Shown here in pieces: positions 7,894-36,262 of a DNA stretch of 36,262 bases. The notes below the pieces were generated by a model, which saw nothing but the letters and a program-made list of their open reading frames with translations, had not been told where the DNA came from and did not search any database. The translations under genes and the position numbers were made by a program. Source of the DNA: Deltaproteobacteria bacterium RBG_13_52_11 (lineage in GTDB: Bacteria; Desulfobacterota; B13-G15; RBG-16-54-18). Positions within the stretch are counted from its first letter, which is position 1. Every line of letters begins with the position of its first letter. The stretch is taken from contig MGQF01000067.1 in assembly GCA_001797745.1 (NCBI GenBank), positions 6,412 to 42,673 of the forward strand. Reading direction: 5' to 3'.

Positions 7894-7927
7894 ATATATC
7901 ATCTATGTGTTTGGAGATGAAAAGGCC

Positions 7928-7950
7928 GGGTTTTGCTTCGAAACCCATTT
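7928..7950 (+). terminator. Weak hairpin after cobB (GGGTTT-N7-AAACCC followed by ATTT)
   Basis: 6-bp stem seen directly, about 35 nt after the stop. The U-tract is short, so this is only a tentative intrinsic terminator. Confidence 0.3.
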
Positions 7951-7954
7951 GGTA

Positions 7955-7983
7955 TTGCAATCAGCGAGTTATGATGCTATAAT
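7955..7983 (+). promoter_or_regulatory. Sigma-70-like promoter for the phoH operon: TTGCAA-N17-TATAAT
   Basis: Near-consensus -35 (7955-7960) and perfect -10 (7978-7983) with a 17-nt spacer. It lies ~170 nt upstream of the phoH ATG, implying a purine-rich leader. Confidence 0.45.
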
Positions 7984-8152
7984 AAGCCTCAATTCCATGA
8001 AAACAGTATCGTTCCAAGACCTCTATCTCCCCTAACCTATTCCCTGACCAGGAAAAGTCGCTATGTGAACAGAGACAGGATGACGTCTTACGCATAGTAA
8101 AGCATCAGGGAGAAGGATATAGAGGGAGAAAGAAAAGGGGCATTAATTACAG

Positions 8153-22177: not shown

Positions 22178-23587
22178 TTACGAGCGATCCCTGAGGGCCT
22201 TGAATATCCTCACTGGTAGGTCATCGAAATGCCCGCTGCTCATCACCACGATGACATCCCCTGGCACCGCCCCTGCAACACAGTGGGCGACGATCTGGTT
22301 CGATTCTTCCAGGTAGCTGGCTGCGGCGTCCCCTTTCGCCTCCCTGATCTCCTGTACAACCCTGTGGGGGTCCAATGCCTCCCCCTGAAATGGGGGTGAA
22401 AAGATCCGCCCGATCACCACGCGATCGGCCTCCCGCAGGGCCGCGGAGAGTTCTTCTTGCAAGACCCTCCTGCGCATGGTCTGGCTCCGGGGCTCGAAGA
22501 TAGCCCACAGGCGCCTGTTTGGATAGCGGGATCTCACTGCTCGCAGGGTCTCTCTGATGGCGGTGGGGTGGTGGGCAAAGTCATCGATCACCGTTATCCC
22601 TCCTGTCTCCCCGATCACCTCCATCCGGCGCCTGACCCCCTGAAAGGTCCGTAGGCCTTCTCTTATCTGAGCGATGGAAAGACCGATGAGGCTGGCAGCG
22701 ATTGCCGCCCCCACGGCATTTTTCACGTTGTGCTCGCCCCAGAGGGGGACCTCCAACTCCTCTAGATCTTCCCCGTCCCGCTGCAGGCGAAAAGCAGTTC
22801 CCTGGGGAGTGACCAGCGTCCCCCGGGGGGACCATTTCCCCTTTTCCCCGAAGGTCTCCACCCGGTACTTTACCTCGGAGATTATCTCTCGAATAACTGC
22901 ATCATCAATACAGGCGATGAGGATGCCTTCTTTGGGGATGATGGCGAGGAGTTGGCGAAAGGCGCTCTTTACCTCCTCCAGGTCATGGTAGATGTCGGCA
23001 TGGTCGTATTCAATGCTCGTGAGGATCACGATCTGGGGCAGGTAATGGAGGAACTTGGGCCTCTTGTCAAAAAAGGCACAGTCATACTCATCACCCTCCA
23101 GGACGGCCCATTCCCCCTTCCCAGAGCGGTACCCCCGACCGAAGTTCAGCGGGACCCCCCCGACGAGAAACGAAGGGTCGAATCCCCCTTGGGAAAGGAG
23201 CCATGCCAGCAGAGATGTTGTAGTGGTCTTTCCATGGGTGCCGGCCACCACCACTGAGTGCCTTCCATCCAGAAGGCATTCCCGTATCAAACCAGGGAGG
23301 GAAAGGTAGGGTATATTTTTATCCAGGACGGCCTCCACCTCTGGGTTCCCCCTCGAAACAGCATTACCGATCACCACCAGATCGGGAGGGGGGAGGAGAT
23401 GGGCGGCGTCATACCCCCCCTTATCGACCACGATGTTACCCTCTTGCAGAAGTCGATCCGTGGGGGTATGGAGGGAGGTATCTGATCCCCTCACCACATA
23501 CCCCATCTCCTGCAGCAGGAGGGCGGCCTGGGCCATGGCGATCCCGCCTATGCCGATGAAGTAGACGTATGCACCCTTTTTTAGCAT
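22178..23587 (-). CDS. mpl: UDP-N-acetylmuramate:L-alanyl-gamma-D-glutamyl-meso-diaminopimelate ligase (murein peptide ligase)
   Basis: N-terminal IGIGGIAMAQAALLL, the Mpl-typical VIGNAVSRGNPEVEAVLDKNIPYLS, the Mur-ligase P-loop GTHGKTTTTS, and a length of ~460 aa. Confidence 0.85.
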   Translation of the reverse strand: MLKKGAYVYFIGIGGIAMAQAALLLQEMGYVVRGSDTSLHTPTDRLLQEGNIVVDKGGYDAAHLLPPPDLVVIGNAVSRGNPEVEAVLDKNIPYLSLPGLIRECLLDGRHSVVVAGTHGKTTTTSLLAWLLSQGGFDPSFLVGGVPLNFGRGYRSGKGEWAVLEGDEYDCAFFDKRPKFLHYLPQIVILTSIEYDHADIYHDLEEVKSAFRQLLAIIPKEGILIACIDDAVIREIISEVKYRVETFGEKGKWSPRGTLVTPQGTAFRLQRDGEDLEELEVPLWGEHNVKNAVGAAIAASLIGLSIAQIREGLRTFQGVRRRMEVIGETGGITVIDDFAHHPTAIRETLRAVRSRYPNRRLWAIFEPRSQTMRRRVLQEELSAALREADRVVIGRIFSPPFQGEALDPHRVVQEIREAKGDAAASYLEESNQIVAHCVAGAVPGDVIVVMSSGHFDDLPVRIFKALRDRS

Positions 23588-23649
23588 GGTCTCTGATTTA
23601 TTAGAGAAATGATTCGTGGCGGGGATGCCCTGACCCCATCACTGATCCA

Positions 23650-24567
23650 TTACCCCTCCCCGTGAAAGGTCACCACCCCTTCGTGCACCTGTACCGGCAC
23701 ACCGAGGGGAATGGTTAGATTGCGGGGGCCGTGGCCGGAGGGGAAGCCGAAGAGGATCGGACCTTGGATGTCCTCTAGGGCATCCACAATCACCTCGTGC
23801 AGGAGGCCCTTTTCCGCATCGCACCCGGGCATCTGGCCGAAGATAACCCCTGTCACCCTTGCCAATTTTCCCGCGCTCTTTAAATGGGTGAGCATCCGGT
23901 CAATCTTATAGGGGGGTTCATTTACATCCTCCACAAAAAGGACCTTCCCCTGCAGGTTCGGATCATAGGGGGTGCCCAGTGCCGTCACCAGAGAGGAGAG
24001 ACACCCCCCCATGATCTCTCCTTGGGCCTCGCCCCTGCGCAGGACAGTGCAGGTAATCTCACCGATAAAGGGAGAAGAGGTAAGAGCTGCCTTAAGGGCA
24101 CGTGCCATCTCTTTGTCCCCTTCCACAAACTGGCGGGTGGCGACGTTGGGGCCGTGAAAGGGGATTACAAAACACTGTTCCAGCAGATAGATGAGCAGGA
24201 CCGTGATATCGCTGCACCCCACCAGGAGTTTGGGATGGCTTCGAATCACATCGGGATCCAGATAGGGGATGATCCGCTGGGCACCGTAGCCGCCCCGGGT
24301 GCACAGGATGGCCTTGACCTCAGGATCGAGGAACATCGCCATAAGCTCCTGGGCTCGCTCCTGGTCCTTCCCAGCCAGATAGAGGTGCTTTCTCTTCAGG
24401 AGGGAGGGGAAACACCTGATCTCAAAACCCATCTCCCTCAACCGCTCCAGCCCCTGCTGAAGGTATTCCTCGTTCTCCCTCGGGATGTGGCTGGCCGGCG
24501 CCACGATGCCGACGCAATCACCCGGCGAGAGGAGGGGAGGCATTATCTGAGCACGACATCGCTTCAT
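23650..24567 (-). CDS. ldcA: LD-carboxypeptidase (peptidase S66, muramoyl-tetrapeptide carboxypeptidase)
   Basis: GDCVGIVAPAS, ILCTRGGYGAQR, and a C-terminal FGFPSGHG region. The ATG overlaps the upstream stop (ATGA). Confidence 0.85.
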   Translation of the reverse strand: MKRCRAQIMPPLLSPGDCVGIVAPASHIPRENEEYLQQGLERLREMGFEIRCFPSLLKRKHLYLAGKDQERAQELMAMFLDPEVKAILCTRGGYGAQRIIPYLDPDVIRSHPKLLVGCSDITVLLIYLLEQCFVIPFHGPNVATRQFVEGDKEMARALKAALTSSPFIGEITCTVLRRGEAQGEIMGGCLSSLVTALGTPYDPNLQGKVLFVEDVNEPPYKIDRMLTHLKSAGKLARVTGVIFGQMPGCDAEKGLLHEVIVDALEDIQGPILFGFPSGHGPRNLTIPLGVPVQVHEGVVTFHGEG

Positions 24568-25610
24568 ATCCCCTTGATCTCCTCAAAGACAACTTTCCTT
24601 AATTTTTTATAAGGGTTGAAGCACTTATCTTGCAGGATGGTCCGTAGGCTCTTCAGGGCAAGGGGAATGTATGGCCGAAAAAATTCTAATCCTCTGGCCT
24701 TGATCAGAAATGCAAAAGCCCCCAAGATCTGCATATTGCGATGGAGGGCCACGAGGGGGTACTGTTCTTGAAAGCCCTTTGGGTCCAGCTTGACCCGATC
24801 CTGTATCCGCCCCAGGTAATAGGCAAGGAGCTCTTCCTGCACACCCGCATCCAGTTCCACATAGGGATCAAGCAGCAGGGAGGCCAAGTCATACTGGAGG
24901 GGGCCTAACCTCCCCCCCTGGAAGTCGAGAAGGCCCAATCCTCCCTCCCACACCATGATATTACGGGATTGGAAGTCCCTATACAGGAAATACCCACCCA
25001 GCGCCTGCGCCGCCTGCCGGGCCAGGTCCTCCATCTCATCCCTGAGCTCCTCGTCGGGGATGTCGAGGCCGAGGTAGTCCGCTAGGAATGCAAAGTGGAA
25101 ATACCCCGACTCCCACGCCAGCATAAACCCCTGATCATACGGCGCATTGTGGGTCCGGGCAAGATCAAATCCCTTGCGGCCTTCGACCTGAATGAGGACC
25201 AGGCAGTCGACAACCCTTTGGTAGGTCTCGATTAATTGCCTTTGATTACCCTTAATGCTCATGATCTCGGTCTGGAGGTGGCAATCACCCAGGTCCTCCA
25301 TAAGAAACCAGCCCCTCTCTATGTTATGATGGTAGATCTCCGGTACAGGGACACCCTTTCCCCTTAGATGCTGGCCGATGTAGAGAAAGGAATCGTTCTC
25401 CGTTACCCCGCGTTTATCCTTGGGAGGATGGCTGCTGACCATGGCCACCCAGCTCTTCCCTTTCCCCTTGATCCGATAAAAGAGCCTGCCCGAGCCTTCT
25501 CCGGCGATCTCCTCCCACGCAAGCTCCCGTGCCGAGAGGTATGCCTCGACAAACCGGATCAGGTCCGGTGAGGGGGTGGCTCCCCTATCATCACTCTTCC
25601 CTGGAGGCAT
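24564..25610 (-). CDS. amgK: Aminoglycoside-phosphotransferase-fold kinase, probably anomeric MurNAc/GlcNAc kinase (AmgK-like)
   Basis: APH/choline-kinase fold motifs (GEGSGRLFYRI; YRDFQSRNIMV catalytic loop; LLDFQGG). It sits between a sugar-1-P nucleotidyltransferase gene and ldcA/mpl. Confidence 0.6.
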   Translation of the reverse strand: MPPGKSDDRGATPSPDLIRFVEAYLSARELAWEEIAGEGSGRLFYRIKGKGKSWVAMVSSHPPKDKRGVTENDSFLYIGQHLRGKGVPVPEIYHHNIERGWFLMEDLGDCHLQTEIMSIKGNQRQLIETYQRVVDCLVLIQVEGRKGFDLARTHNAPYDQGFMLAWESGYFHFAFLADYLGLDIPDEELRDEMEDLARQAAQALGGYFLYRDFQSRNIMVWEGGLGLLDFQGGRLGPLQYDLASLLLDPYVELDAGVQEELLAYYLGRIQDRVKLDPKGFQEQYPLVALHRNMQILGAFAFLIKARGLEFFRPYIPLALKSLRTILQDKCFNPYKKLRKVVFEEIKGI

Positions 25611-25613
25611 CGC

Positions 25614-26546
25614 TCACCCCGGGATCAAGGCCTCCCCTTGATGCCGGCCCGTTACCTGCGTCCTGTCACCTACGACACAGCTCTCCAGAATACTCCCTGG
25701 GTCAATCACTGCCTCGTCCCAGATGATGGAGTCTTTGATGAAGGAACCGACCTTGATGTAGGTTCCCTTCCCCACGCAGATGATCCCCTCCATTTGAACG
25801 CCCTCCTCGATATGGGCCTCCGGATGAATGATCGGCTCTCTCTTCACGCGCAGGAGGTCCTCATGCAGGGCCCTGTAGTCTTCCACCCTCCCGATATCCC
25901 GCCAATATCCCTGCTGCATCTGATATCCTTTTATTGCCCCCCCTTGGGAGGCGAACTCGATGTAGAATTCCATAATATCAAAATATCCGGCAGAGGGCAT
26001 GTAGTCCAGGAGTCGGGGTGAGATGATGTGGATCCCCGTAAAAGTCAAGATCTGGGCAGGCGAGAGGGGTTTTTGTACCTCCCGCCCCCTGACGCTGACG
26101 ATCCGCCCCTTTTCATCGATCCCTACCTGGTTGAAACGGGGATCATCGCAGAGGATCAAGGTGACGAGGTTCTGCGCCTCTGTATGGTAGTGAAGCGCGG
26201 GGCTCAGGTCAAAGGTATGGTAGATGTCGGCGTTGATTACCACGAAGAGGGAGGCATCATAAAAGAAGTCAGCGCAGTTCTTGATCCCCCCGCCGGTGCC
26301 CAGAATTTCAGGCTCAACCCGTACCTCCACCCCTAAACCCCATTGCCCCCTGCCCACGAATCGCTCCACCTGCTCTGCCAGGTGATGGGCGTTGATCACG
26401 ACCCCCGTTGCCCCCATCCCCCGTAGCTGTTCAATGGCGATACCGAGCAAGGGCCGGTTCAGAACAGGGAACAAAGGTTTTGGCCTGATGCTCGTCAGCG
26501 GCTCCAGCCTGGTCCCCAAACCGGCTGCCAGTATCATCCCCTTCAT
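25614..26546 (-). CDS. murU: Sugar-1-phosphate nucleotidyltransferase, MurU-like, with a C-terminal hexapeptide-repeat (LbH) extension
   Basis: MILAAGLGTRLEPLTSIRPKPLFPV signature. The C-terminal ~80 aa have an imperfect hexapeptide periodicity. It is adjacent to the AmgK-like kinase. Confidence 0.6.
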   Translation of the reverse strand: MKGMILAAGLGTRLEPLTSIRPKPLFPVLNRPLLGIAIEQLRGMGATGVVINAHHLAEQVERFVGRGQWGLGVEVRVEPEILGTGGGIKNCADFFYDASLFVVINADIYHTFDLSPALHYHTEAQNLVTLILCDDPRFNQVGIDEKGRIVSVRGREVQKPLSPAQILTFTGIHIISPRLLDYMPSAGYFDIMEFYIEFASQGGAIKGYQMQQGYWRDIGRVEDYRALHEDLLRVKREPIIHPEAHIEEGVQMEGIICVGKGTYIKVGSFIKDSIIWDEAVIDPGSILESCVVGDRTQVTGRHQGEALIPG

Positions 26547-27148
26547 TGAGTGCCCGACAAGGGAAGGGAAGGTTCAATACCGGGTCCCGGCTGCCCCTGA
26601 GCTTGCTCCGGGGCAGCAAAAATGAGGGCCCTGGAGAAACCAGAAAGGGTTGCCACGATCACCGTGGGGAATCGCTGGCGATAGGTATTATATTCCCCGG
26701 CCACCTCGTTGTACCGCATACGCTCCTTGGCGATGCGGTCTTCGTTGTCGGCCAGCTTTCCCTGGAGATCGATGAACGTTTGATCGGTCTTGAGGTCAGG
26801 ATACCGTTCCGTCACCAATAGCAACCGATCCAGGGCAGCGGTCAGCTCGTTGTTCGCCGCTATCTTTTCGGTTAGGAGCATCCTCGTCGAGACCTTGAGA
26901 TGCAACTGGGTAACCGCTCCATAGACCCCCTGTTCGTGCGGGGCATACGATTTAACCGTCTCGACGTAGTTGGGGATGAGATCCATCCGGCGCTGGAGCT
27001 GGTTTTCCACCTGGGCCCAGGACGCCTTAACCTTCTCGTTCATGGCCATCAACTGACTACGGGTCCCCTTGATAGAAGGATACAACAGGAGGCCCACCAC
27101 GCCGACTATGACCAAGACGAGCAAACAGCCCTTTTTCCCCCCTGCCAT
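26543..27148 (-). CDS. lemA: LemA family protein (copy 1)
   Basis: N-terminal TM, then WAQVENQLQRRMDLIPNYVETVK and ERYPDLK, the hallmark LemA motifs. Its stop overlaps the murU-like ATG by 4 nt. Confidence 0.9.
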   Translation of the reverse strand: MAGGKKGCLLVLVIVGVVGLLLYPSIKGTRSQLMAMNEKVKASWAQVENQLQRRMDLIPNYVETVKSYAPHEQGVYGAVTQLHLKVSTRMLLTEKIAANNELTAALDRLLLVTERYPDLKTDQTFIDLQGKLADNEDRIAKERMRYNEVAGEYNTYRQRFPTVIVATLSGFSRALIFAAPEQAQGQPGPGIEPSLPLSGTQ

Positions 27149-27164
27149 CTCACGCTCCTTTTCT

Positions 27165-27334
27165 TTTCCCCTACCTCTTATCCACCCAAAAGGTAAGGCA
27201 CCTCACCTCTGCGATGTAATGCTCTCTGAGGCCCTCCATCTCCTTTGCAGGGAATTTTGGTTTTCCCTTTTTTTTACCTCCAATAATCGTATGAAGGGGT
27301 CTGAGTTCAGCCCCGTCTCAACCGCTATCGCCTT
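27165..27334 (-). pseudogene. Remnant of the 3-prime end of the nucleotidyltransferase gene, left by a tandem duplication
   Basis: Nucleotide homology at a constant offset of ~811 nt to 27976-28144. Example: CCGCTATCGCCTTG at 27321 and at 28131. The translated remnant KAIAVETGLNSDPFIRLLEVKK aligns with KAIAAETGLDAVPFVRLLEVKE. There is no N-terminal part. Confidence 0.65.
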
Positions 27335-27359
27335 GCAGAGGATAAAAGGAACAGGCTTA

Positions 27360-27947
27360 TTAGAACTGGACCTTCGGTGGCTTCTTGGCTTCCTCTGGGG
27401 CCTCAAAGAGGGGGGCCCTGGTGAAGCCGAAGATCCCCGCCACGATGCTGTTGGGGAACCGCCGGATATAGACATTATATCCCCTGACCGCCTCGTTGTA
27501 CCTCATGCGCTCCACGGCGATGCGGTTCTCGGTGCCGGCCAGCTCGTCTTGGAGGCGGATGAAGTTTTGATTGGCCTTGAGGTCGGGATAACGCTCAACC
27601 ACTAACAGGAGTCGGCTCAGGGCTGCTGTCAGCTCATTGCTGGCCGCTATCTTCTGGGATGGGGTCACCGACCCTCCGACCTTGGCCCGCGCATTGGTGA
27701 CCTCTATAAAGACCTCCCGTTCATGCTTGGCATACCCCTTGACCGTCTCCACGTAGTTGGGTATGAGGTTCATCCGGCGCTGGAGCTGATTTTCCACCTG
27801 GGCCCAGGCCGTCTTGACCCCCTCGTCCATTCTCACCAGAGCGTTATAGGTCCCCGTAACATAAGAAAAAAGCCCGATGCCCAAAACCAAGAGGACGGCT
27901 ACGACAATCGCTGCAATGATCAGAGCAATTTTTGTCCCTCTTCTCAT
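27360..27947 (-). CDS. lemA: LemA family protein (copy 2)
   Basis: Same motifs as copy 1 (WAQVENQLQRRMNLIPNYVETVK; ERYPDLK). By eye it is roughly 60 percent identical to copy 1. Confidence 0.9.
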   Translation of the reverse strand: MRRGTKIALIIAAIVVAVLLVLGIGLFSYVTGTYNALVRMDEGVKTAWAQVENQLQRRMNLIPNYVETVKGYAKHEREVFIEVTNARAKVGGSVTPSQKIAASNELTAALSRLLLVVERYPDLKANQNFIRLQDELAGTENRIAVERMRYNEAVRGYNVYIRRFPNSIVAGIFGFTRAPLFEAPEEAKKPPKVQF

Positions 27948-27975
27948 TTCCTCCTCCTTTCTTCTCTTCTTTTCT

Positions 27976-28773
27976 TTAACTTCCCATCTTATCTAGCCAA
28001 GAGGCGAGTCGATTCACCTCTTCGATATAGCTCATCATAAGGCCCTTCATCTTCTTCGCAGGGAGCTTATTTTTTCCCTCCTTGACCTCCAATAATCGCA
28101 CGAAGGGCACTGCGTCCAATCCCGTCTCCGCCGCTATCGCCTTGATGACGTCACCTCTCTGATGGGGGATTTTTTTACCCCGCAGGGAGAGGATCCCCTG
28201 GAAGATGGAGAGAAGGGCAGTGAGGGATTGCGAGGCAAGGGCCACGAGATTCCTCCCCCATCCCTTGCTGGCGAGATACGCCCCCCTTAATTGGAGGAGC
28301 TTCCCTTTTACCTCCCTCTCCAATTGGAGGCGGAGCTGCTTCTGGTGGATTTCGATCCCCGCCAGGGGATCTACCCCCCACACCACCTGGTAGTGCTGCG
28401 TGATATTCAGAAACTCCAGGGGGAAGGTGTCCAGCGAGGTGGCGATGTACTCATTGGTCATAAAGAGGGGGGTGGCCACACGGCGCCTATGCCATTTGGT
28501 AACTACCTTGAAGGCCCTGCCGAGCCCTTTGATCCCTTCCTCGGTGAGGACGATGAGGAAATTGAGATCCGACCGCTTCGGGATGTAGTCCCCCCGGGCC
28601 CCACTTCCATAGAGGACGATGGAGATCAGGGCTTCTCCGTAGATCTGTTGATAATCGTTGGTGAACTCAGGAATTATCTCCTCCGGGCTCTGAGGTGCCC
28701 TTATCTTCTTTGCCCTTTTTTCAAACTCATTCTTCAGGGTTGTCCATATCCGTCTCAAGAGTGACTTTATCAT
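27976..28773 (-). CDS. Pol-beta-superfamily nucleotidyltransferase-domain protein with a helical C-terminal domain
   Basis: LYGSGARGDYIPKRSDLNFLIVL matches the minimal-NTase hG[GS]-x(9-13)-D-h-[DE] pattern, except that the second acidic residue is Asn. The C-terminal domain contains RGKKIPH (R-x5-H). Confidence 0.65.
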   Translation of the reverse strand: MIKSLLRRIWTTLKNEFEKRAKKIRAPQSPEEIIPEFTNDYQQIYGEALISIVLYGSGARGDYIPKRSDLNFLIVLTEEGIKGLGRAFKVVTKWHRRRVATPLFMTNEYIATSLDTFPLEFLNITQHYQVVWGVDPLAGIEIHQKQLRLQLEREVKGKLLQLRGAYLASKGWGRNLVALASQSLTALLSIFQGILSLRGKKIPHQRGDVIKAIAAETGLDAVPFVRLLEVKEGKNKLPAKKMKGLMMSYIEEVNRLASWLDKMGS

Positions 28774-28786
28774 CGTTACCTTCCTC

Positions 28787-29581
28787 TCAAAAACCCCTGC
28801 TGGCCCCGCCGCCGCCGCTCATCCCCCCGCCAAAACCGCCGAACCCGCCGCCAAAACCGCCGAACCCGCCGCTGCCCATCCCTCGGCCACCTCCCATAAA
28901 GATCCAGGGGAGGAAGAAAAAGGGAAACAACCCCCTGCCTCTGCCCAAAAGGCCGAAGATGATAAACAGAAAAAAGAGGAGGGGTAAGAGACCAACTGCC
29001 CGCCTTGCCTTGGGTTGCACCACTGACCGAGGTGCATAGCGGTCCAGATTGAGATTCACCCCTGCATCCTTGGCCACAACCTGGGCTATGGCTGCCATCC
29101 CGTTGAGCAAGCCCTCACCGTACTCATCACGGCGCAGGAAGGGGACAACGTATTGATCCAAGATATCCCCAATCTTTGCGTCCGGGAGTATCCCTTCCAC
29201 CCCATATCCGGTCTCAAATGTCACCTGTCTCTCCTTCACAGCCACGAGGATCAGAACCCCTTTATCCTCCCCCTTTGTGCCGATCCCCCACGCCTCATAG
29301 AGCTTGTTGGCGAATATTCGAGGGGTTTCTCCTCCCAGATCACGAAAAGTGGCTACTACCACGGCGGTCCTTGTCTGATCCCAGAGGGCCTTGGCAAGTT
29401 GATCCATCTGAGCCTCATACTCAGGTGGGATTACTTCTGCGTAGTCGTTGACCGGGACATTCGTTTGGGGGAATTTCAGGACCTGGGCCTGAAGGGGGGT
29501 GAGGATGAGGACGACGAACAAACCCACAAGGGGCCATATCTTCATATATCTGTTCCCGTATCTCTCTCCTGTGCGAGGCAT
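28787..29581 (-). CDS. TPM-domain protein (YgcG-like) with a C-terminal TM and a Gly/Phe-rich tail
   Basis: Signal peptide, then a TPM core (VNDYAEVIPPE ... VVVATF ... GVLILVAVKERQVTFETGYG), a TM helix, and a GGFGGFGGGFGGFGGG tail. Alternative start at 29545 (MKIWPL...). Confidence 0.85.
   Translation of the reverse strand: MPRTGERYGNRYMKIWPLVGLFVVLILTPLQAQVLKFPQTNVPVNDYAEVIPPEYEAQMDQLAKALWDQTRTAVVVATFRDLGGETPRIFANKLYEAWGIGTKGEDKGVLILVAVKERQVTFETGYGVEGILPDAKIGDILDQYVVPFLRRDEYGEGLLNGMAAIAQVVAKDAGVNLNLDRYAPRSVVQPKARRAVGLLPLLFFLFIIFGLLGRGRGLFPFFFLPWIFMGGGRGMGSGGFGGFGGGFGGFGGGMSGGGGASRGF
28829..28870. repeat. Perfect 21-nt x 2 tandem repeat inside the Gly/Phe-rich tail codons
   Basis: GCCAAAACCGCCGAACCCGCC occurs twice back to back, read directly. 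Confidence 0.9.
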
Positions 29582-29741
29582 TCTTCAATCAGGCCGCAAA
29601 AGTTTTACCCTTATAGCATCTTTGCCCTTCGGTTGCAAGGGGACTTCTCAGAAAATAGGGCCTTAAGATCTCCTCTCCCCACTGGCGAGAGAGGGGAAAT
29701 ATATTTTCATAAGTTGAGGTTGACGATACCATCATGGGGAT

Positions 29742-31097
29742 TCATTCTGTTATCCGAGCCATTGCCTTGAGGGCCTGCAAATCTGCCCGGGTCAGCCCCT
29801 CCCATTGACACGGCAGGATCGTGTTGTTGTGCAGCAGCGGCTCGTGCGCCAAGTCGAAGGGAGAGCACTGCACAGCCGCCTCCCACAAGGAAGTGCCGGG
29901 AATCGGTGAGTACTCCGCCAGATAGGGTCGGGCCCCGCACGCCTGAACAAAGCGGATGGTCTCCTCTACCTCTTCCCGCTCCTGGCCCGGGAGCCCGGCC
30001 AAAATATAGGTCCCGATCTCCCCTGGGACATATCCCGCTCGCTGGAGGTTCTGCATTGCCAATTGGAACTCTTCATTGTTCACCTTCCCCCCGGTTGCCA
30101 ACTGGCGCTCGTGGCTGGAGGTCTCCAGACCGAGGCGGACTGTGGCAAAACCCACCTGGTGCATCAGGTGCGCTACCTCATCGGTGACCTCTCGGGAGTG
30201 GAGCCCATTTGGGGCGTGAAATCGGGCTTTTATACCACTTACCCCTATTCCCTGCAACAAGGCGATGGCGAACTGATGGTCGATCAAGAGGGCATCGTCA
30301 TAAAAGGCGATGTCCTCTACCCCATACTCCACCACCCACCGGGCAATCTCCTCAACCACCTGGGCGGGACTGCGCTTGATAAACCGGGGGTTGAGGAGAG
30401 GGGAGGCGCAGTAGGTGCATTGAAAGGGGCACCCCCGAGAGGTGAGGCAACAGCAGTAGTCGATATGGGGATAAAGACCATAGGCCGGTGAGGGGAGGGT
30501 GTCGAGGTTATTCAAGTCGGGGAGGGCGGAGGGGGCAATACCAGTCAGCCCCTCCAGGAGCTCTAGGACCTGAATCTCCCCCCACCCCCTGCAAATGAAA
30601 TCCGCCCCTGAATTCCCCTCTGCATGCTCCGTGCAGAGGGTGGCGTAGTTCCCCCCTAAGATCGCTGGTACCTTCGGGAAGGCCTCTTTGACGGCTGTTA
30701 TGACATCCTGAACCCCTCGATACCAGTATGTCATCCCTGAGGTGATGAGAATGGCCTGGGGTGCCGAAAAGGATCGGAGGGCTTCCCTAAAGGCCTCAGG
30801 GGGGAGGCCAAAGCGGTAGAACCGGCGGGGGATCCCCTGCAGAGGAGAGGGCTTATCTACCTCTTCTCGATAAAAGTGTCCCCGGTGATCTGGTCTCCGC
30901 TTGGGTTCTTTGATGCTGAGGGTCTTCAGGGCAGGGTGGTGGACATCAAGACAGTCGATATAGTGTATGGTCCAGCCATTGTTCTCCAGAAGGGCGGCCA
31001 GGTAGAGGAGCCCCAGGGGCTTGGCCCAGAGGTCATAGGCGGCGAAGTCGTAGACCCACGGGTTGATCAGAAGGAGATCTTTCCTTTTTCTTCCCAA
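29742..31097 (-). CDS. B12-binding-domain radical SAM enzyme (COG1032 type), substrate unknown
   Basis: CPFQCTYC (CxxxCxxC) cluster motif and an N-terminal Rossmann-like B12-binding-type domain (LLINPWVYDFAAYDLWAKPLGLLYLA ... ILITSGMTYW). TTG start with GAGGAGG 4 nt upstream. Confidence 0.85.
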   Translation of the reverse strand: MGRKRKDLLLINPWVYDFAAYDLWAKPLGLLYLAALLENNGWTIHYIDCLDVHHPALKTLSIKEPKRRPDHRGHFYREEVDKPSPLQGIPRRFYRFGLPPEAFREALRSFSAPQAILITSGMTYWYRGVQDVITAVKEAFPKVPAILGGNYATLCTEHAEGNSGADFICRGWGEIQVLELLEGLTGIAPSALPDLNNLDTLPSPAYGLYPHIDYCCCLTSRGCPFQCTYCASPLLNPRFIKRSPAQVVEEIARWVVEYGVEDIAFYDDALLIDHQFAIALLQGIGVSGIKARFHAPNGLHSREVTDEVAHLMHQVGFATVRLGLETSSHERQLATGGKVNNEEFQLAMQNLQRAGYVPGEIGTYILAGLPGQEREEVEETIRFVQACGARPYLAEYSPIPGTSLWEAAVQCSPFDLAHEPLLHNNTILPCQWEGLTRADLQALKAMARITE

Positions 31098-31590
31098 TGG
31101 GCCTCCTCACTGGTCAAGGTGATCTCCGCAAACCCCATCCGGCGGAACAGCTTTACTGCTGGCGGGGGTTCTGGTTCATGGGCATCGAGGAGTTTCACAT
31201 CAATCAAGATCTCTCTCACTCCCATCTGCCACCACCCCCCCCTCCTGTCTAGAGGATTACCCTCTCGCAGACCTCAGTCAGCATTTCCATGTCATGGGTT
31301 GCAATGACCTTGGCGAACTTCAGGTGGTGTAAAAGGCCGATCAGCCCCCTCCTGGCCGCAGGGTCAACATTGCTCGTGGGCTCGTCCAAGAGCGGGATCT
31401 CCGGCTTCATGGACAGGACGGTTGCGATGGTGATCCTCTGCTTCTCCCTGTAGCTGAGGTGATGCGGGCACCGCTCCCCGTACCCTCCATGCCGACTAGC
31501 CCAGGGCCTTTGTCACCCGCTCCCTAATCTTTTCTTTAGGATGGCCCATGTTCAGGGGCCCGCAGGCGACATCCTCGAAGACTGCTCCTC
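31067..31590 (-). pseudogene. Decayed ECF/ABC ATPase gene (cbiO/ecfA-like). N-terminally truncated, with frameshifts and an in-frame stop.
   Basis: Hand translation of the minus strand gave the following.
- VFEDVACGPLNMGHPKEKIRERVTKAL, then frame breaks near 31500.
- PHHLSYREKQRITIATVLSMKPEIPLLDEPTSNVDPAARRGLIGLL...VIATHDMEMLTEVCERVIL, ending at a TAG at 31249-31251.
- A G8 run, then VVADGSEREILIDVKLLDAHE in another frame.
- No Walker A region, and the LSGGQ signature is degenerate (LSYRE). Confidence 0.7.
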
Positions 31591-31805
31591 AACTGAGGAA
31601 TACTCCAAAGGCTATTTGCCAAATAAACTAACCACTTCAAGATTACTGCGATACCAACGACAAGTCAATGAGATAACAGGCGCCGCAGCTTTCGCTGCTC
31701 CCACACCTCATGAGGCTCCATTCGCCCCGCTGCCAGCCACATGTCCTCTCCTCAACTTTCATTGACACTCAAAAAATAAACTGTTTTCAAGAAGGGCTCG
31801 CCCAC

Positions 31806-31851
31806 TATACCGCCTGAGACAAAATAAAAGCTTCGATGTCTCGGCGGTATA
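31806..31851. repeat. Long imperfect hairpin: a 14-bp stem with one bulge and a 17-nt loop
   Basis: TATACCGCCTGAGAC (31806-31820) pairs with GTCTCGGCGGTATA (31838-31851). T31815 is bulged. No U-tract on either strand. Confidence 0.6.
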
Positions 31852-31917
31852 CCGGGTCTCCTGTTCACAATGCTTGCAAGCCCGCACATAAGATTCTTTC
31901 AGCGGTTGGATGATTGG
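31842..31917. repeat. Left 76-nt inverted repeat (IR-L) flanking the nickel cassette
   Basis: The ungapped alignment to the reverse complement of 36090-36165 gives 61/76 identical by hand count. Confidence 0.8.
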
Positions 31918-31942
31918 ATAAAGAATGAATAAAAACTTTCGC

Positions 31943-31995
31943 TTGACGTATAATCCATATTATGCTACTTATTAAAAATTAGTAGCACTTGGAGA
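31943..31995 (+). promoter_or_regulatory. nikR promoter region with a 7-N11-7 inverted repeat, TGCTACT-N11-AGTAGCA (candidate NikR operator)
   Basis: TATAAT at 31949-31954. The inverted repeat at 31963-31987 lies between the -10 and the GGAGA ribosome-binding site (31991-31995). The AGTAGCAC word recurs twice upstream of the next gene. Confidence 0.4.
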
Positions 31996-31999
31996 ATTT

Positions 32000-32413
32000 A
32001 TGTCAAAAGTTGTAAGATTTGGTGTATCACTAGATCAAGAGTTATTAGAGAAATTTGACCGCCTTGCAAAAGAAAGAAACTATACTTGTCGTTCCGAGGC
32101 ATTTAGGGATTTAATGCGCCAGGAACTGGTTCAAAAACAATGGCAAGAGGGTAAGGAGATCGCCGGTGCCATCACGCTCATTTACGACCATCACAAAAGA
32201 GAGTTGGTAAATAAGCTTATGGATATCCAGCATGATTTCGGCGCGCTGATTATCTCTTCTCAGCACGTTCATTTAGATCACCGCAATTGCCTGGAGATCA
32301 TTGCATTCAAGGGTTCTCCACGAGAGGCACAAAAATTGGGCGACAGCTTGAAATCAGTAAAAGGGGTGAAACATGGAACATTGAGCATGACAACTACTGG
32401 CAAGGATATTTAG
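32000..32413 (+). CDS. nikR: Nickel-responsive transcriptional regulator NikR (ribbon-helix-helix plus ACT-like nickel-binding domain)
   Basis: The N-terminal RFGVSLDQELLEKFD...RSEAFRDLMR RHH domain and HVHLDHRNCLEIIAFKG match the E. coli NikR high-affinity site region (HVHINHDDCLEIAVLKG). Confidence 0.9.
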   Translation: MSKVVRFGVSLDQELLEKFDRLAKERNYTCRSEAFRDLMRQELVQKQWQEGKEIAGAITLIYDHHKRELVNKLMDIQHDFGALIISSQHVHLDHRNCLEIIAFKGSPREAQKLGDSLKSVKGVKHGTLSMTTTGKDI

Positions 32414-32426
32414 GGGTATTATTTTT

Positions 32427-32467
32427 TTGCCCATAAGTAGCACTAATTTAATATTAGTAGCACTAAT
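32427..32467 (+). promoter_or_regulatory. Candidate promoter (TTGCCC-N16-TAATAT) overlapped by two direct AGTAGCACTAAT repeats spaced 20 nt apart
   Basis: The repeats are at 32436-32447 and 32456-32467, both read directly. The first lies in the spacer and the second just after the -10. The second forms the palindrome ATTAGT-AGC-ACTAAT. Confidence 0.35.
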
Positions 32468-32554
32468 GGGATTTACAAAAAAAGGTGTTAGAAGCATGGC
32501 GCGAGAACTCATAACTCTAGGTGGAAAGTATTAAGAAGAAGGAGGAAAATCGTT

Positions 32555-33256
32555 ATGTTTCCAGTACTAGTTTATAAAAAAGAAAAGAGAACCACAATGA
32601 TACACATAATATTTACGAAGCGATTTGCTTTGGTATTAACTCTGTGTTTCATACTGACTCAATGTTTAATTTTTTACGTGGGTGCACACGAGGCTCCTCG
32701 GCTAGAGCCGCGCACACCTGTCGTGATGAAAGAATTCCCCGTAGATCCCGCACTATTCAAAGAGGATGTCAGACCGTATCTACAGAAGATCATTGAGAGA
32801 CATGGTCTTGAGGAGTGGAAGGCGTGTGTCTTGACCAACGAGTTACATCGACACCTGGGGATCTACTCTCTTGTTGGAGCCAAAATGGGGGTCAGGGCAA
32901 GGGAAATCTTAGAAGCCCCTTTTGATACGGTAGATGTCATCTCGTTGGCCGGAAACCAACAACCCCTGAGTTGTATGAACGACGGACTTCAGGTTTCCAC
33001 AGGAGCAAGCCTGGGTCGTGCAGCTATTACCATCGCTCACGTGAACCAGCCTGCGGCGATTTTTCTCTATAGGGATAAAATGGCCACCCTAAGGACAAAA
33101 AAGGAAATAGTGAATCAGATACAGGGAGATATTCAGGCGGCCTTGAAGAAGTATGGAGGATTAAACCCTGAATACTTTGCACATATTAGGAAGCTATCAC
33201 TCGAATACTGGTTAAAATGGGACCGAAAAGAAATTTTCGAGGAGATCATTGATTAA
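32555..33256 (+). CDS. Signal-anchored FmdE/FwdE-like domain protein
   Basis: An N-terminal hydrophobic anchor (FALVLTLCFILTQCLIFYV), then LHRHLGIYSLVGAKMGVRAREIL ... SCMNDGLQVSTGASLGR. This aligns with the FmdE consensus as I recall it: HGHxCPGxxxGxRxxxxAxxxL ... CxxDxxQxxTGCTxGK. GGAGG lies 9 nt upstream of the ATG. Confidence 0.6.
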   Translation: MFPVLVYKKEKRTTMIHIIFTKRFALVLTLCFILTQCLIFYVGAHEAPRLEPRTPVVMKEFPVDPALFKEDVRPYLQKIIERHGLEEWKACVLTNELHRHLGIYSLVGAKMGVRAREILEAPFDTVDVISLAGNQQPLSCMNDGLQVSTGASLGRAAITIAHVNQPAAIFLYRDKMATLRTKKEIVNQIQGDIQAALKKYGGLNPEYFAHIRKLSLEYWLKWDRKEIFEEIID

Positions 33257-33391
33257 CATTATATGCTGGCCTTGCGATCAGTTTTAAATGCTGTTAGGGT
33301 ATAAGAGGTTGCTATCGGTACTAATTCGGATGCGAATGATTCAGCAGCTTTAACCTTTGTCTACACATTTTAGATTGAACAAGGAGAAGAA

Positions 33392-34078
33392 ATGCATATA
33401 CCAGACGGATATTTGGGGCCGGCGTCATGCGGTTTTTTCTATGCGCTGATGCTGCCGATATGGACAGTGGCTACCAGGATAGTTAAAAAAACCCTTAAGG
33501 CAAAGCAGGTCCCCCTGTTGGCAATAGGCGCTGCCTTTAGCTTTGTCATCATGATGTTCAATGTCCCCATACCAGGAGGTTCAACCGGGCATGCAGTCGG
33601 GGGTGTTTTAGTGGCCATCCTTCTTGGGCCGTGGGCGGCATGCATCGCAATAACCGTTGCCTTGGTCGTTCAAGCACTATTATTCGGAGACGGTGGTATT
33701 ACGGCGATAGGGGCGAATTGTTTTAACATGGCCTTTGTGTTACCTTTTATAGGATACTATCTCTACAAGGCCCTGAGTTATAACGCCCCCCTTGATTCAA
33801 ACAGAAGGGTGCTGGCGGCAGGGGTGGCTGGTTATATTGGCATTAATGTGGCTGCCTTTTTAGCAGGGGTTGAATTCGGGTTGCAGCCGCTGTTGCACCA
33901 TACTGCTGATGGCCAGGCCCTTTACTGTCCTTACGGATTGAATATCGCGGTGCCGGCAATGGCAGGCGAGCATCTCTTGATATTCGGCTGGGTCGAGGCT
34001 ATTGTAACCGCCCTCGTGATAAAATTTTTACAGAAGCAAGCGCCCGAGCTTCTTAAAGAAAAAAAAGGGAGGGGATAA
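33392..34078 (+). CDS. cbiM: ECF-transporter metal-specific S component, CbiM/NikM
   Basis: The hallmark N-terminus MHIPDGYL and about 6-7 TM helices. The NikR context favours nickel specificity. Confidence 0.9.
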   Translation: MHIPDGYLGPASCGFFYALMLPIWTVATRIVKKTLKAKQVPLLAIGAAFSFVIMMFNVPIPGGSTGHAVGGVLVAILLGPWAACIAITVALVVQALLFGDGGITAIGANCFNMAFVLPFIGYYLYKALSYNAPLDSNRRVLAAGVAGYIGINVAAFLAGVEFGLQPLLHHTADGQALYCPYGLNIAVPAMAGEHLLIFGWVEAIVTALVIKFLQKQAPELLKEKKGRG

Positions 34079-34080
34079 CT

Positions 34081-34416
34081 ATGAAAATTGCGACTAAATT
34101 GTGGATAGGATTAGGTGCGTTGATCGTCCTTTCTCCCCTCGGGTTATTGCTCCCCGAACATTTTAAGGCAGGTGCTGCATGGGGTGAGTGGGGAATGGAT
34201 GAGATAAAGGAGCTCGCAGGATATGTCCCCAAGGGGTTAGAAAAACTCGCGCCATTATGGAATGCGCCTCTACCTGATTATGCCTTGAAGGGATGGGAGG
34301 AAAAAGGTTTATCGCATTTAAGTTTTGCGTATATTATATCGGCCATAGTAGGTATGGCCATTACATGCATTGCGGTATTGCTTATAGGCAGGCTGTTGGC
34401 CAGGAAGGGCGATTAG
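34081..34416 (+). CDS. PDGLE-domain small membrane protein (CbiN/NikN-equivalent accessory subunit)
   Basis: Two terminal TM helices flank a loop with AWGEWG and a YVPKGLEKL (PDGLE-like) motif. It starts 2 nt after the cbiM stop. Confidence 0.7.
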   Translation: MKIATKLWIGLGALIVLSPLGLLLPEHFKAGAAWGEWGMDEIKELAGYVPKGLEKLAPLWNAPLPDYALKGWEEKGLSHLSFAYIISAIVGMAITCIAVLLIGRLLARKGD

Positions 34417-34418
34417 TA

Positions 34419-35264
34419 GTGTTTAAAAACAATAATTTCATAGAGCGCTCAATCATGGGCGCTCTATCTTTTTTAAAGGAATCGATCTTTGCTGAAGAAT
34501 ATGCATCACGGAAAAGTTTTTTGCAATCGTTAGATCCAAGGATCAAGACCTTAACCTTCCTCCTCTTCATCATGCAAGTACTTCTTGCCAAGAATCTCTT
34601 CATTTTGTTATGCCTTTATGCGTTATGTTTACTGCTGACGCTTTGTTCTAAGATCAACCTGGGATTTTTCTTGAAACGGACGTGGATATTTATACCCCTG
34701 TTTTCGCTCCTGATCGCCATTCCTGCCTTGTTTAATATCGTTACCCCCGGGGAACCGTTCATTACTTTCAAGATAGCCGGACAAAAACTTAGTATTACCC
34801 GCCAAGGATTATTTGGAGCACTATTTTTTATTATGCGCGTGATAACTTCCGTATCGTTTGTTGTTCTTTTAAGTGTTACGACGAAGCATTTTGAGCTGCT
34901 CAAGGTTTTACGTTTTTTTAGGATACCACAAGTCTTTGTGATGACCATCGGAATGTGCTACCGATATATTTATCTTTTTGTTGAGATAATCGAAAACACC
35001 TATCTCGCCATCAAGAGTCGGGTAGGAATAACGGTTCACTACAAAAAAGGACAGCATATTGTTGCGTGGAACATCGCCTATCTGTGGAATCGCTCGTACC
35101 AACTCAATGAAGAGGTGTATAAGGCAATGCTTTCAAGGGGATATAGGGGAGAGCCGGTTGCCATGAATGATTTTAAAATCAAACCAAAAGATGGGTTGTG
35201 GTTATGTTTAGTCGTAATAATTTCTGCTTCGATGATATATTTAAATTATCGGCTAAAAGTATGA
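34419..35264 (+). CDS. cbiQ: ECF-transporter T component, CbiQ
   Basis: LDPRIKTLTFLLF start of the CbiQ fold, about 5 TM helices, and C-terminal AMLSRGY. The ORF-track start at 34293 would overlap the preceding gene by 124 nt. I prefer the GTG at 34419 (AGGAAGG upstream). The ATG at 34455 is also possible. Confidence 0.8.
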   Translation: MFKNNNFIERSIMGALSFLKESIFAEEYASRKSFLQSLDPRIKTLTFLLFIMQVLLAKNLFILLCLYALCLLLTLCSKINLGFFLKRTWIFIPLFSLLIAIPALFNIVTPGEPFITFKIAGQKLSITRQGLFGALFFIMRVITSVSFVVLLSVTTKHFELLKVLRFFRIPQVFVMTIGMCYRYIYLFVEIIENTYLAIKSRVGITVHYKKGQHIVAWNIAYLWNRSYQLNEEVYKAMLSRGYRGEPVAMNDFKIKPKDGLWLCLVVIISASMIYLNYRLKV

Positions 35265-35273
35265 AAGGGTATT

Positions 35274-36089
35274 ATGGATAATCTAATCTTTGAATTAAAG
35301 GATGTCTATTTCGCGTATCTTGGGAAATATCCCGCCTTATGCGGCGTAGATATCAATATCCGGCAGGGAGAACGGATAACGATTATCGGCGCAAACGGCT
35401 CTGGGAAATCAACGCTTTTACATATGTTGGATGGGCTTATTTTCCCTGACAAAGGCACCATTAAAGCCTTTGGCAGGGAATTAAAAGAAGGTCGCTTTAG
35501 CGATGAAAACTTCTCAATGGATTTTAGAAAGAAAGTAGGATTGGTTTTTCAGAATTCCGATGTCCAGTTGTTCTGCCCAACCGTAAAAGAAGATATTGTC
35601 TTCGGCCCGCTCCAGTTAAGAGTTGGTAAAAGGGAGATTGAGAGGCGTCTCGACGAGCTTATTAATATTCTAAACATTAAAGATTTATTGGATAGATCCC
35701 CGCATCAGTTAAGTATCGGTGAAAAACGCAAAGTTGCGATAGCATCGACTTTGATGATTGATCCCGATGTTCTTATCGTGGATGAACCGACATCTGGATT
35801 AGATCCTTTGACAACCAGGCACATCATTGACATGCTCCTGCAGGCCAATGTCGCTGGTAAGACAATCATCACCTCTACACACGATCTGCATATCGTTGAG
35901 GAGATATCCGACGTGGTTTACGTATTCGGCCACGAAAAGAGAATAGTAAGGTCCGGCAGTCCGCAGGAAATCTTGGAAGACAACCAATTGCTTGAGGTCA
36001 ACAACCTCATACATATACATAGCCACAGGCATAAAGGGAGAACACACTCTCACCCCCATCTGCATTTATATCATCATGATGAAGGTTAA
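35274..36089 (+). CDS. cbiO: ECF-transporter ATPase CbiO/NikO with a His-rich C-terminal tail
   Basis: Walker A GANGSGKST, signature LSIGEKRK, Walker B LIVDEPTSGLD, and switch THDLH. The tail reads HIHSHRHKGRTHSHPHLHLYHHDEG. Confidence 0.9.
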   Translation: MDNLIFELKDVYFAYLGKYPALCGVDINIRQGERITIIGANGSGKSTLLHMLDGLIFPDKGTIKAFGRELKEGRFSDENFSMDFRKKVGLVFQNSDVQLFCPTVKEDIVFGPLQLRVGKREIERRLDELINILNIKDLLDRSPHQLSIGEKRKVAIASTLMIDPDVLIVDEPTSGLDPLTTRHIIDMLLQANVAGKTIITSTHDLHIVEEISDVVYVFGHEKRIVRSGSPQEILEDNQLLEVNNLIHIHSHRHKGRTHSHPHLHLYHHDEG

Positions 36090-36165
36090 CCAATTATCTC
36101 ACCGCTGAAAAAATCTTACGTGCTGGTTCGCAAGCATTGTGAGCAAGAGGCTCGGCATGCCGCTG
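36090..36165. repeat. Right 76-nt inverted repeat (IR-R) flanking the nickel cassette
   Basis: It begins at the base immediately after the cbiO TAA. Its reverse complement aligns ungapped with 31842-31917 (61/76). Confidence 0.8.
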
Positions 36166-36262
36166 TCAATCCCGGAAATCTAAAAGGCGTTTATGCTTGT
36201 TGACTCATAAATAAATGTTACCCTGGGGGATCGTTGGTAGAGGGGTGTGAGGGGTAGCAGGA

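Follow-up and report, generated by a model that had tools for sequence, protein, structure and literature searches.

The question raised by this locus is why a nickel-uptake operon, running from nikR to cbiO, is bracketed by two long, imperfect inverted repeats. The operon lies in a stretch of 36,262 nucleotides (nt) of contig MGQF01000067.1 of Deltaproteobacteria bacterium RBG_13_52_11, the whole of which was analysed here and is called the window, and it occupies the plus strand, opposite to a block of genes headed by a B12-binding radical SAM gene. We consider it likely, from the sequence comparisons discussed below, that the two arms of the repeat are diverged copies of one spacer, termed S, that were left when the nik operon flipped, i.e. 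that they are the scar of a rearrangement. As far as the alignments reach, they establish that S is single-copy at the syntenic site in relatives, that the operon has the opposite orientation in the window, and that each of the two copies of S in the window has one native and one new junction.

The arms of the repeat and their copy number

An ungapped alignment of 31842-31917 with the reverse complement of 36090-36165 gives identity at 61/76 positions, with 13 of the 15 mismatches being transitions; these recomputed figures are the same as those of an initial annotation of this DNA, in which the repeats were first described. The repeat finder extends the arms slightly, to 31844-31921 and 36086-36163 (78 nt, 81%). 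The right arm begins at 36090, immediately 3' of the cbiO stop codon (TAA, 36087-36089), as was also stated in that annotation, and weak similarity between the arms reaches 3-4 nt into this stop codon. The longest run that is identical between the arms is 13 nt, and the arms differ at 20% of positions. In addition, a perfect 10-bp palindrome stands at the same aligned position in both arms, which had likewise been noticed and which we read directly at 31845-31854 (CGGTATACCG) and at 36153-36162 (CGGCATGCCG).

When either arm is searched by blastn against the whole window, a check that the initial annotation had suggested, the sole match is the partner arm (E about 2e-15), i.e. two copies are present. 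A degenerate pattern of the S core was also searched for by exact-pattern scans, which miss copies below about 95% identity: it gives 0 matches in metagenome contigs and one match in species-representative genomes, in an Isosphaeraceae metagenome-assembled genome (MAG; L001). The latter match does not extend past the 23-nt pattern; we regard it as due to chance and reject it as a dispersed copy of S.

The native position of the spacer

We assembled 94 relative loci by exact-protein look-ups and by a protein-anchored metagenome scan around CbiO homologues, the CbiO protein having many close relatives with 85-94% identity. In one of these loci (L015, with CbiO 89% identical), the entire 76-nt sequence, including CGGCATGCCG, is found a single time, in the interval that separates the cbiO stop codon from the radical SAM gene. 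With a profile made from three S copies, one more full-length S is found, in L020, where it lies directly after cbiO, and only the first ~33 nt of S are found in L013, L014, L019 and L096. The profile search finds S nowhere else in the 94 loci, and no copy is present upstream of nikR in the relatives that have this region visible, all of which are carriers of the short spacer allele described below. Because L015 and L020 have a single copy, located in the gap from cbiO to the radical SAM gene, the 76-mer is, as judged from this comparison, the native downstream spacer of the operon, ancestrally single-copy and non-repetitive. In the window, the profile detects both copies. The right copy, S_R (36090-36165, plus strand; nhmmer E 4e-24), directly follows the cbiO stop codon, the native arrangement that is also found in L015 and L020. 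The left copy, S_L (31842-31917, with its sense on the minus strand; nhmmer E 6e-23), likewise stands in its native place, with the remnant of an ATPase gene, termed cbiO', and the radical SAM gene downstream of it.

The gene order of the relatives is uniform. In about 27 loci, for which CbiO is at least 78% identical (78-95%) and the DNA downstream is retained, one gene order on one strand is present and none is inverted: nikR, the variable gene or genes, cbiM, a PDGLE gene, cbiQ, cbiO, the B12-binding radical SAM gene, and then the genes that begin with a TPM phosphatase and continue with a 265-aa protein, LemA, an NTP-transferase, APH, a peptidase S66 and a Mur ligase. The collinear order is also the deep state, being found in L002, L006 and L020 at synonymous divergences (dS) of 0.5-0.8. 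In the window, the block from the radical SAM gene to the Mur ligase gene lies at 22178-31097 on the minus strand and the nik operon on the plus strand, so that the operon is inverted versus all sampled relatives. The synteny comparison that had been proposed in the initial annotation therefore gives about 27 collinear relatives, with the window alone flipped among the lineages.

Consider now the ends of the two copies. S_R keeps the native junction to cbiO. Its outer end forms a new junction, J2 (at about 36163-36166), which is located 3 nt past the palindrome and joins S_R to unrelated sequence: here S_R diverges while S_L, L015 and L020 stay alike, with only 2/20 positions beyond the outer end of S_R being identical to other versions of S. 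S_L keeps the native junction on the downstream side. Just outside it 12/20 positions are identical to L015, and farther on lies the native sequence that follows S in L015, termed segment P (31642-31675, minus strand; the label has no functional meaning), with 28/34 positions identical to L015 1522-1555, a score that is reached by 0/500 shuffles. Between S_L and segment P there is an insertion of ~165 nt (31676-31841) that has no counterpart in L015 or L020. At its other end, S_L ends at the boundary that corresponds to the cbiO stop codon and abuts the upstream region of nikR, forming the new junction J1 (31918-31929), where the homology to S stops at 31917-31921 and the homology to the nikR promoters of the relatives sets in from ~31929-31932. 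Thus, each copy has one ancestral junction and one new junction, and this is the pattern of an inversion that duplicates the sequence at one breakpoint. Between the flanks TTCGATGTCT and TCAATCCCGG, no direct repeat of the kind left as a target-site duplication is found.

Note also that the region 31676-31841 holds a short open reading frame (ORF) that is preceded by a ribosome-binding site, as well as a GANGAS Walker-A-like motif; the CbiO profile gives no match there.

Proposed pathway of the inversion

Based on these junctions, we propose the following pathway. A 4.2-kb segment, from ~70 nt upstream of nikR through cbiO and S, would have been inverted relative to the radical SAM block. By this event each end of the segment would come to have a copy of S, the two being oppositely oriented, with S_R remaining beside cbiO and S_L beside cbiO' and the radical SAM gene, and the new joints J1 and J2 would be formed. 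The two copies would then have drifted to 80% identity, mainly by transitions. The initial annotation had listed, among its readings, an old inversion between the repeats. The inversion itself is upheld by all of the collinear relatives, but not the repeat pair existing beforehand, for S is single-copy in the relatives and was apparently duplicated together with the inversion.

As for the molecular route, two possibilities are the most likely. In the first, the inversion would take place in one step through staggered breaks, and the stretch between them would be duplicated. Cases are documented in which an inversion has inverted duplications of non-repetitive breakpoint sequence on its flanks, and there they are explained by the filling in and rejoining of such breaks (PMC1885836). 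In the second, a replication template switch of the tandem-inversion-duplication type would begin at the palindromic tip of S and be followed by the loss of the redundant copies. It is noted that short-range replication template switching yields reverse-complement copies (PMC8794818; PMC7202029), and that it also yields simultaneous "compensatory" double substitutions in stems without selection (PMC8794818). That J2 lies so close to the palindrome (3 nt past it) would agree with a template switch initiated at a hairpin, but is no proof of one.

A reverse-complement copy is present right beside S_L. The outer 15 nt of S_L plus 6 nt of its flank have such a copy at 31800-31821, which pairs with 31837-31858 and is identical at 19/21 positions over 21 nt. 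The resulting hairpin of ~20 bp (-41.5 kcal/mol, z = -3.3, on the minus strand) is missing from S_R, L015 and L020. Of the two palindromes, CGGCATGCCG in S_R is the ancestral one, being the same in L015, with L020 having the non-palindromic CAACATGCCG. The palindrome CGGTATACCG in S_L is the derived one, its T and A states being unique to S_L when compared with S_R, L015 and L020.

Direction and age of the duplication

The identity between S_L and S_R is 80%, versus 62-75% between either arm and the other versions of S, so that the arms are mutually closest. When L015 and L020 are taken as outgroups, the ancestral base is found in S_R at 10/15 differences and in S_L at 3/15, with 2 being ambiguous. 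When more sequences are included, the unique changes number 8 in S_L and 3 in S_R, an imbalance that by our estimate is not significant (binomial two-sided p about 0.23).

The coding sequences on either side of S provide a second measure. The cbiO gene is closest to L013 and L096, with dS being 0.10-0.12, and codons 1-55 of the radical SAM gene have dS of 0.13-0.16 to the same two loci, 0.26 to L019 and 0.6-1.0 to the other seven relatives compared. Because L013 and L096, in which the two genes are adjacent and collinear, are the nearest relatives both for cbiO and for the 5' end of the radical SAM gene, a fairly recent ancestor of the window was, to judge from these distances, almost certainly collinear. 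Moreover, over the first 33 nt of the spacer S_R differs from L013 at least as much as the arms differ from each other, and on the spacer's own clock the duplication would be about as old as the split between the window and L013.

In the same comparison with L096, the synonymous divergence from the window is 0.10 at the 3' end of cbiO and 0.16 in codons 1-55 of the radical SAM gene, and then becomes 0.28, 0.74 and 0.45 deeper in the gene. This indicates a putative recombination boundary inside the radical SAM gene (29742-31097) between the lineages of L096 and the window.

The spacer between cbiO and the radical SAM gene occurs in two forms, a long allele (the window, L015 and L020) and a short deletion allele (L013, L096, L010, L016, L019, L002 and L006), with all short alleles having one deletion junction, after ...ATCTTACGT. 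The distribution of the alleles disagrees with the cbiO tree: the closest relatives of the window carry the short allele, which is also present in much more distant relatives. Such a distribution suggests recombination between lineages or recurrent deletion. A further case is given by L014 (5175-5330) and L015 (1431-1650), which have an identical CbiO protein (P0004) and the first 33-34 nt of S in common and diverge completely after that; past the break, L015 runs on to the radical SAM gene and L014 into unrelated sequence. Since this break lies within 1-2 nt of the deletion junction of the short alleles, position ~33-34 of S is a repeated breakpoint. Rearrangements seem to have recurred in this spacer, which shows several deletions of independent origin, one inversion and a local copy of the template-switch kind.

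Evidence weighed against the inversion and alternative explanations

Several points weigh against an inversion with duplicated breakpoint. The inverted layout is known from one contig only. Only 2 alignment columns appear strictly shared-derived between the arms. The divergence between the arms (Jukes-Cantor distance 0.23) is larger than the dS of cbiO to its closest collinear relative (0.12). The long spacer allele is retained in the window but not in its closest relatives, which have the short one; this requires recombination or recurrent deletion. Finally, the tail beyond S_R (36166-36262, 97 nt) is unlike the Lip_A/nikR intergenic region that is predicted by a simple local flip: it gives no match to that region of the relatives, and, with a length of only 97 nt, no significant match to the nikR upstream regions of 12 relatives or to the sequence that follows S. 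The mismatch of the tail implies either that the direct ancestor had another upstream neighbour, as L010 and L014 differ upstream, or that J2 was reshaped by a further deletion or rearrangement. The mismatch would follow naturally from the tandem-inversion-duplication route with subsequent deletions.

A pathway with two steps leads to the same final structure. In the first step an inverted copy of S would arise upstream of nikR, and in the second step homologous recombination between the two copies would flip the operon. The structure of the ends would then be indistinguishable from that produced in one step, and short reverse-complement copying did occur beside S_L, at 31800-31821. However, the relatives in which the region upstream of nikR is visible, all having the short allele, contain no S there, and 76 nt is a short substrate for RecA-type recombination. 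We regard this two-step pathway as unlikely.

It could also be supposed that the operon was replaced rather than flipped, that is, that a stretch nikR...cbiO-S of a sister lineage was integrated in inverted orientation beside the resident S and that the resident operon was then lost, so that the two arms would come from different lineages. The mosaic divergence from L096, in which dS rises from 0.10 in cbiO to 0.45-0.74 over most of the radical SAM gene, the larger number of unique changes in S_L than in S_R, and the divergence of the arms exceeding the dS of cbiO to L013 would all be accounted for in this way. By contrast, the 5' end of the radical SAM gene has the same low dS to L013 and L096 as cbiO has, which implies the same recent relatives for the flank of S_L and for the operon. 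In addition, the arms are mutually closest, the imbalance of 8:3 in unique changes is not significant, and the deletion of the resident cbiO would have to end exactly at its stop codon. With this evidence a replacement is quite improbable.

A footprint of cassette acquisition or replacement had been among the readings of the initial annotation. It is true that the operon is AT-richer, with 43% GC versus 57% in the 22-31 kb block, but the contrast is not specific to the window: in collinear relatives, which have no bracketing repeats, the operon has 46-52% and the block 52-58%. As the break in GC is present in collinear relatives, as cbiO and the 5' end of the radical SAM gene are nearest to the same relatives, and as cbiO' is ancestral at its position (see below), the repeats are not to be read as such a footprint.

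We next turn to function. The arms might be kept by selection, serving as a palindrome for binding of a dimer, as crossover sites of a recombinase, or in the RNA-RNA pairing of transcript ends, and it is true that the palindrome is preserved by a symmetric double change, that the arms share an identical core of 13 nt, and that positions 1-33 of S are moderately conserved across the clade. However, the palindrome is not kept in L020, and the double change lies within the template-switch-like copy, the mechanism of which gives such changes without selection (PMC8794818). Given the mismatch density and the transition bias, we estimate the chance of a symmetric complementary double change to be roughly 0.08, because of which the symmetric substitution is weak evidence for selection on a binding site. 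The selection on the palindrome that had been suggested earlier is not required, with CGGCATGCCG being ancestral and CGGTATACCG lying inside the 21-nt copy.

The pairing of transcript ends, also suggested earlier, fares no better. S_L lies upstream of the conserved nikR promoter region; the mismatches have no wobble bias, those compatible with G-U pairs numbering 8 on one strand versus 5 on the other; and the fold of S_R is not stable, with z = +1.7 versus shuffles, so that only S_L together with its local inverted copy folds strongly. A scan of the whole window with Rfam at the gathering thresholds gives 0 matches, and both arms give 0 matches at E <= 1. Moreover, the relatives manage with a single copy of S, and no recombinase is present in the 36 kb that the window covers of its 42,673-nt contig: among the large ORFs of the window no Pfam domain of a recombinase, transposase, integrase, invertase or resolvase is found, as the initial annotation had stated for recombinases. 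That the arms are maintained by selection is accordingly very improbable, and the repeats are most likely without function today. Note also that S was considered as a terminator or promoter and rejected as such, since the scans gave no promoter or terminator near S_L and only a weak 6-bp terminator-like site, on the antisense strand, in the interior of S_R.

There is a comparably small chance that the layout is an artefact of assembly, i.e. a chimeric or mis-oriented join in a metagenome contig. The layout is found in one contig only, and the source looks metagenomic, to judge from its relatives, which are MAGs and metagenome contigs. By contrast, the arms differ at 20% of positions and their longest common run is 13 nt, so that no k-mer is shared by which an assembler could flip the segment; J1 and J2 join unrelated sequences, and all six operon genes are intact.

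It is also conceivable, with a similarly slight probability, that the copies of S, with their 13-nt core and palindromic tips, are crossover sites for a recombinase encoded outside the window, by which the operon would be flipped as a programmed switch. If this is true, the nickel operon would be coupled to and uncoupled from the block of the radical SAM, TPM and LemA genes, with the window representing the "off-coupled" state.

Finally, that the arms are the terminal inverted repeats of a non-autonomous mobile cassette carrying the nickel operon, similar to a miniature inverted-repeat transposable element (MITE) or a mobile insertion cassette (MIC), is hardly credible: a gene cassette is indeed bracketed by long imperfect inverted repeats and the nik operon is absent, on a deep timescale, from the corresponding site of L097, but S is single-copy at a fixed syntenic place with the operons of the relatives having no left-hand copy, the window has two copies and the scans of the collections gave only a chance 23-nt match or none, the outer side of S_L continues as native sequence and so is no end of an element, and there is neither a target-site duplication nor a transposase in the 36-kb window.

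The cbiO' remnant and the deep history of the locus

Outside S_L lies cbiO' (31067-31650, minus strand), a pseudogene of a different paralogue of the energy-coupling factor (ECF) ATPase, which extends from about residue 85 to the end and contains at least 2 frameshifts and one stop. By blastx it is 36% identical to the intact CbiO over residues 140-215, and the profile matches cover positions 99-129 and 140-216 of the hidden Markov model, in two frames. Its C-terminus is an ordinary and different one (...LTSEEAHWEEKGKISF) and overlaps the start of the radical SAM gene. With only 36% identity and this different C-terminus, we reject cbiO' as a decayed copy of the operon's own cbiO. In L020 a shorter piece of cbiO' is present between S and the radical SAM gene, and in most relatives, such as L013, L096 and L010, only its last ~15 codons remain. 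On this comparison, cbiO' is ancestral at its position, having presumably been eroded by deletions that differ from lineage to lineage. The initial annotation was correct in describing a decayed, oppositely oriented ECF ATPase gene outside the left repeat, for cbiO' is frameshifted and on the minus strand, but as a footprint of replacement it does not serve, being ancestral and a paralogue at 36% identity.

One candidate identity for S itself was considered here, that of the decayed N-terminus of cbiO'. The grounds for it are an open frame common to the arms, with 17/25 amino acids identical between them by hand translation, and the in-frame GANGAS Walker-A-like motif. Against it, the open frame has a frameshift in L015 and a stop in L020, also by hand translation, and the CbiO profile detects residues 99-216 of the remnant alone and gives no match to S, whether in the window, L015 or L020. 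We therefore reject it.

It is also noted that a 17-nt direct match (16/17) exists between 31213-31229 and 36047-36063, i.e. between the antisense of the cbiO' remnant and the part of cbiO encoding the His-tail. With a blastn E of 0.4-1.6, this match is probably due to chance.

On a deeper timescale, L097 (NCBI CP070817.1, a contig of 1.09 Mb) shows what may be called an "empty site" at 7702-8000: a Lip_A acyltransferase gene and the radical SAM gene, the product of which is 70% identical, are divergent and ~300 nt apart, with no nik operon between them. L097 keeps the motif on the Lip_A side (...TTGTCAAGG) and a motif just upstream of the radical SAM start. From this arrangement, the whole nik operon looks like an accessory insertion (or there was a deletion) between Lip_A and radical SAM genes on a deep timescale, unrelated to the repeats. 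An accessory insertion fits the composition of the operon.

The genes of the operon and its neighbourhood

All six genes of the operon are intact and lie on the plus strand. The promoter/operator region of nikR (31930-31999) is ~70% identical to the 60-65 nt upstream of nikR in L002-L010 and has moved with the operon; it contains TTGACG at 31943-31948 and the inverted motif TGCTACT-N11-AGTAGCA at 31963-31987. It is followed by nikR (32000-32413; Pfam RHH_1 and NikR_C; 90-93% identical to the relatives), by a gene with an FmdE domain in the variable slot between nikR and cbiM (32555-33256; Pfam FmdE 5e-12; 78% identical to L014), and by cbiM/nikM (33392-34078; Pfam CbiM 8e-64). The gene of a small membrane component with a PDGLE domain (34081-34416; Pfam PDGLE 1e-10) comes next, and then cbiQ (34419-35264; Pfam CbiQ 3e-28, obtained with the longer ORF), which has 281 aa as in the relatives. 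The start of cbiQ is likely the GTG at 34419, as predicted from the 281-aa cbiQ of the relatives that starts directly after the PDGLE gene. The last gene is cbiO/nikO (35274-36089; Pfam ABC_tran), with a His-rich tail and 94% identity to P0002 of L013. Taken together, NikR, CbiM, the small membrane subunit, CbiQ and CbiO make this a predicted NikR-regulated, ECF-type operon for the uptake of nickel or cobalt. On the other side of S_L, the B12-binding radical SAM gene (29742-31097, minus strand; identified by Pfam) is the first of the conserved downstream block and is collinear with cbiO in all relatives.

The slot between nikR and cbiM differs in its content even among close relatives. It contains the FmdE-domain protein in the window (32555-33256) and in L014, an outer-membrane protein of the Phenol_MetA_deg type in L006-L009 (L006 7172-8134), OprB in L010 (6494-7825), and, in L002 and L004, FmdE together with a complete SBP_bac_5/Opp-like ABC importer and TrmO_N (L002 715-7467).

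Upstream of two of the genes, motifs of the AAGTAGCA(C/T) type are present. Before nikR they form an inverted pair, TGCTACT-N11-AGTAGCA (31962-31989), and before the FmdE-like gene they form two direct copies, 20 nt apart (32435-32467); the repeat finder gives 51 nt in common at 73% identity between the regions 31967-32017 and 32442-32492. At the site of the nikR-side motif the relatives have ATGCTAT-N13-TAGTAAC. Judged from their arrangement, the motif pairs before nikR and the FmdE-like gene are probably candidate NikR operators at two promoters.

Two further observations concern CbiO homologues and the window at large. P0001 (414 aa, from an ENA contig of 1,624 nt) is a CbiO homologue with an internal tandem duplication, in which the sequence restarts at the Walker A motif (GSGKSTLLHMLDG) after ~195 residues; the duplication of part of the gene may be genuine or may stem from the assembly. 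At 5001-7000 of the window the GC content drops to 37-43%, over the end of a gene for a TPR-repeat protein and over a methyltransferase gene, in a polysaccharide/glycosyltransferase neighbourhood.

Comparison with known systems

The operon itself resembles what we take to be the NikR-regulated operons of NikMNQO-type ECF nickel transporters in a classification of the Rodionov type. The likeness lies in nikR (RHH and NikR_C), CbiM, the small PDGLE protein, CbiQ, the CbiO ATPase and the operator-like palindromic motifs upstream. In comparison with such operons the genes are ordinary, and what is unusual is the orientation to the downstream block and the second, decayed ATPase paralogue. A possible consequence of that orientation is that the radical SAM block may here no longer be read through from the nickel-regulated operon.

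Switches of the fim/hin type and cassettes bounded by an insertion sequence (IS) or a MITE have in common with this locus that the segment is bracketed by inverted repeats. By contrast, here no recombinase or transposase is present in the window, the repeats are diverged and are single-copy in the relatives, and there is no target duplication. The locus may serve as a cautionary example that a gene cassette can have long inverted repeats at its ends without being mobile and without the repeats forming a regulatory structure.

A model of tandem inversion duplication has been developed for Salmonella. The present locus is similar to tandem inversion duplication and template switching at quasi-palindromes (PMC7202029, PMC8794818) in that a palindrome is located 3 nt from J2, in that a 21-nt reverse-complement copy stands beside S_L, and in that a symmetric double substitution keeps the palindrome perfect. 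It differs in that no three-copy direct-inverted-direct intermediate is seen, the loss of the redundant copies of the operon being assumed.

Inversions with duplicated breakpoints are mostly documented in eukaryotes. In the inversions described by Ranz et al. 2007 (PLoS Biol, PMC1885836), as here, the segment is bounded by two inverted copies of a sequence that uninverted relatives have only once, one ancestral junction survives at each copy, and transposable elements play no part. Those inversions are of megabase scale in Drosophila and duplicate whole genes, while here the segment is a bacterial operon of 4.2 kb and the duplication amounts to 76 nt; compared with the model given there (PMC1885836), the duplication here is at one breakpoint only, and the other junction is without a match to the ancestral neighbour. 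With an inversion taken as the likely origin of the arms, the locus would provide a clean, small-scale bacterial case of an inversion with a duplicated breakpoint.

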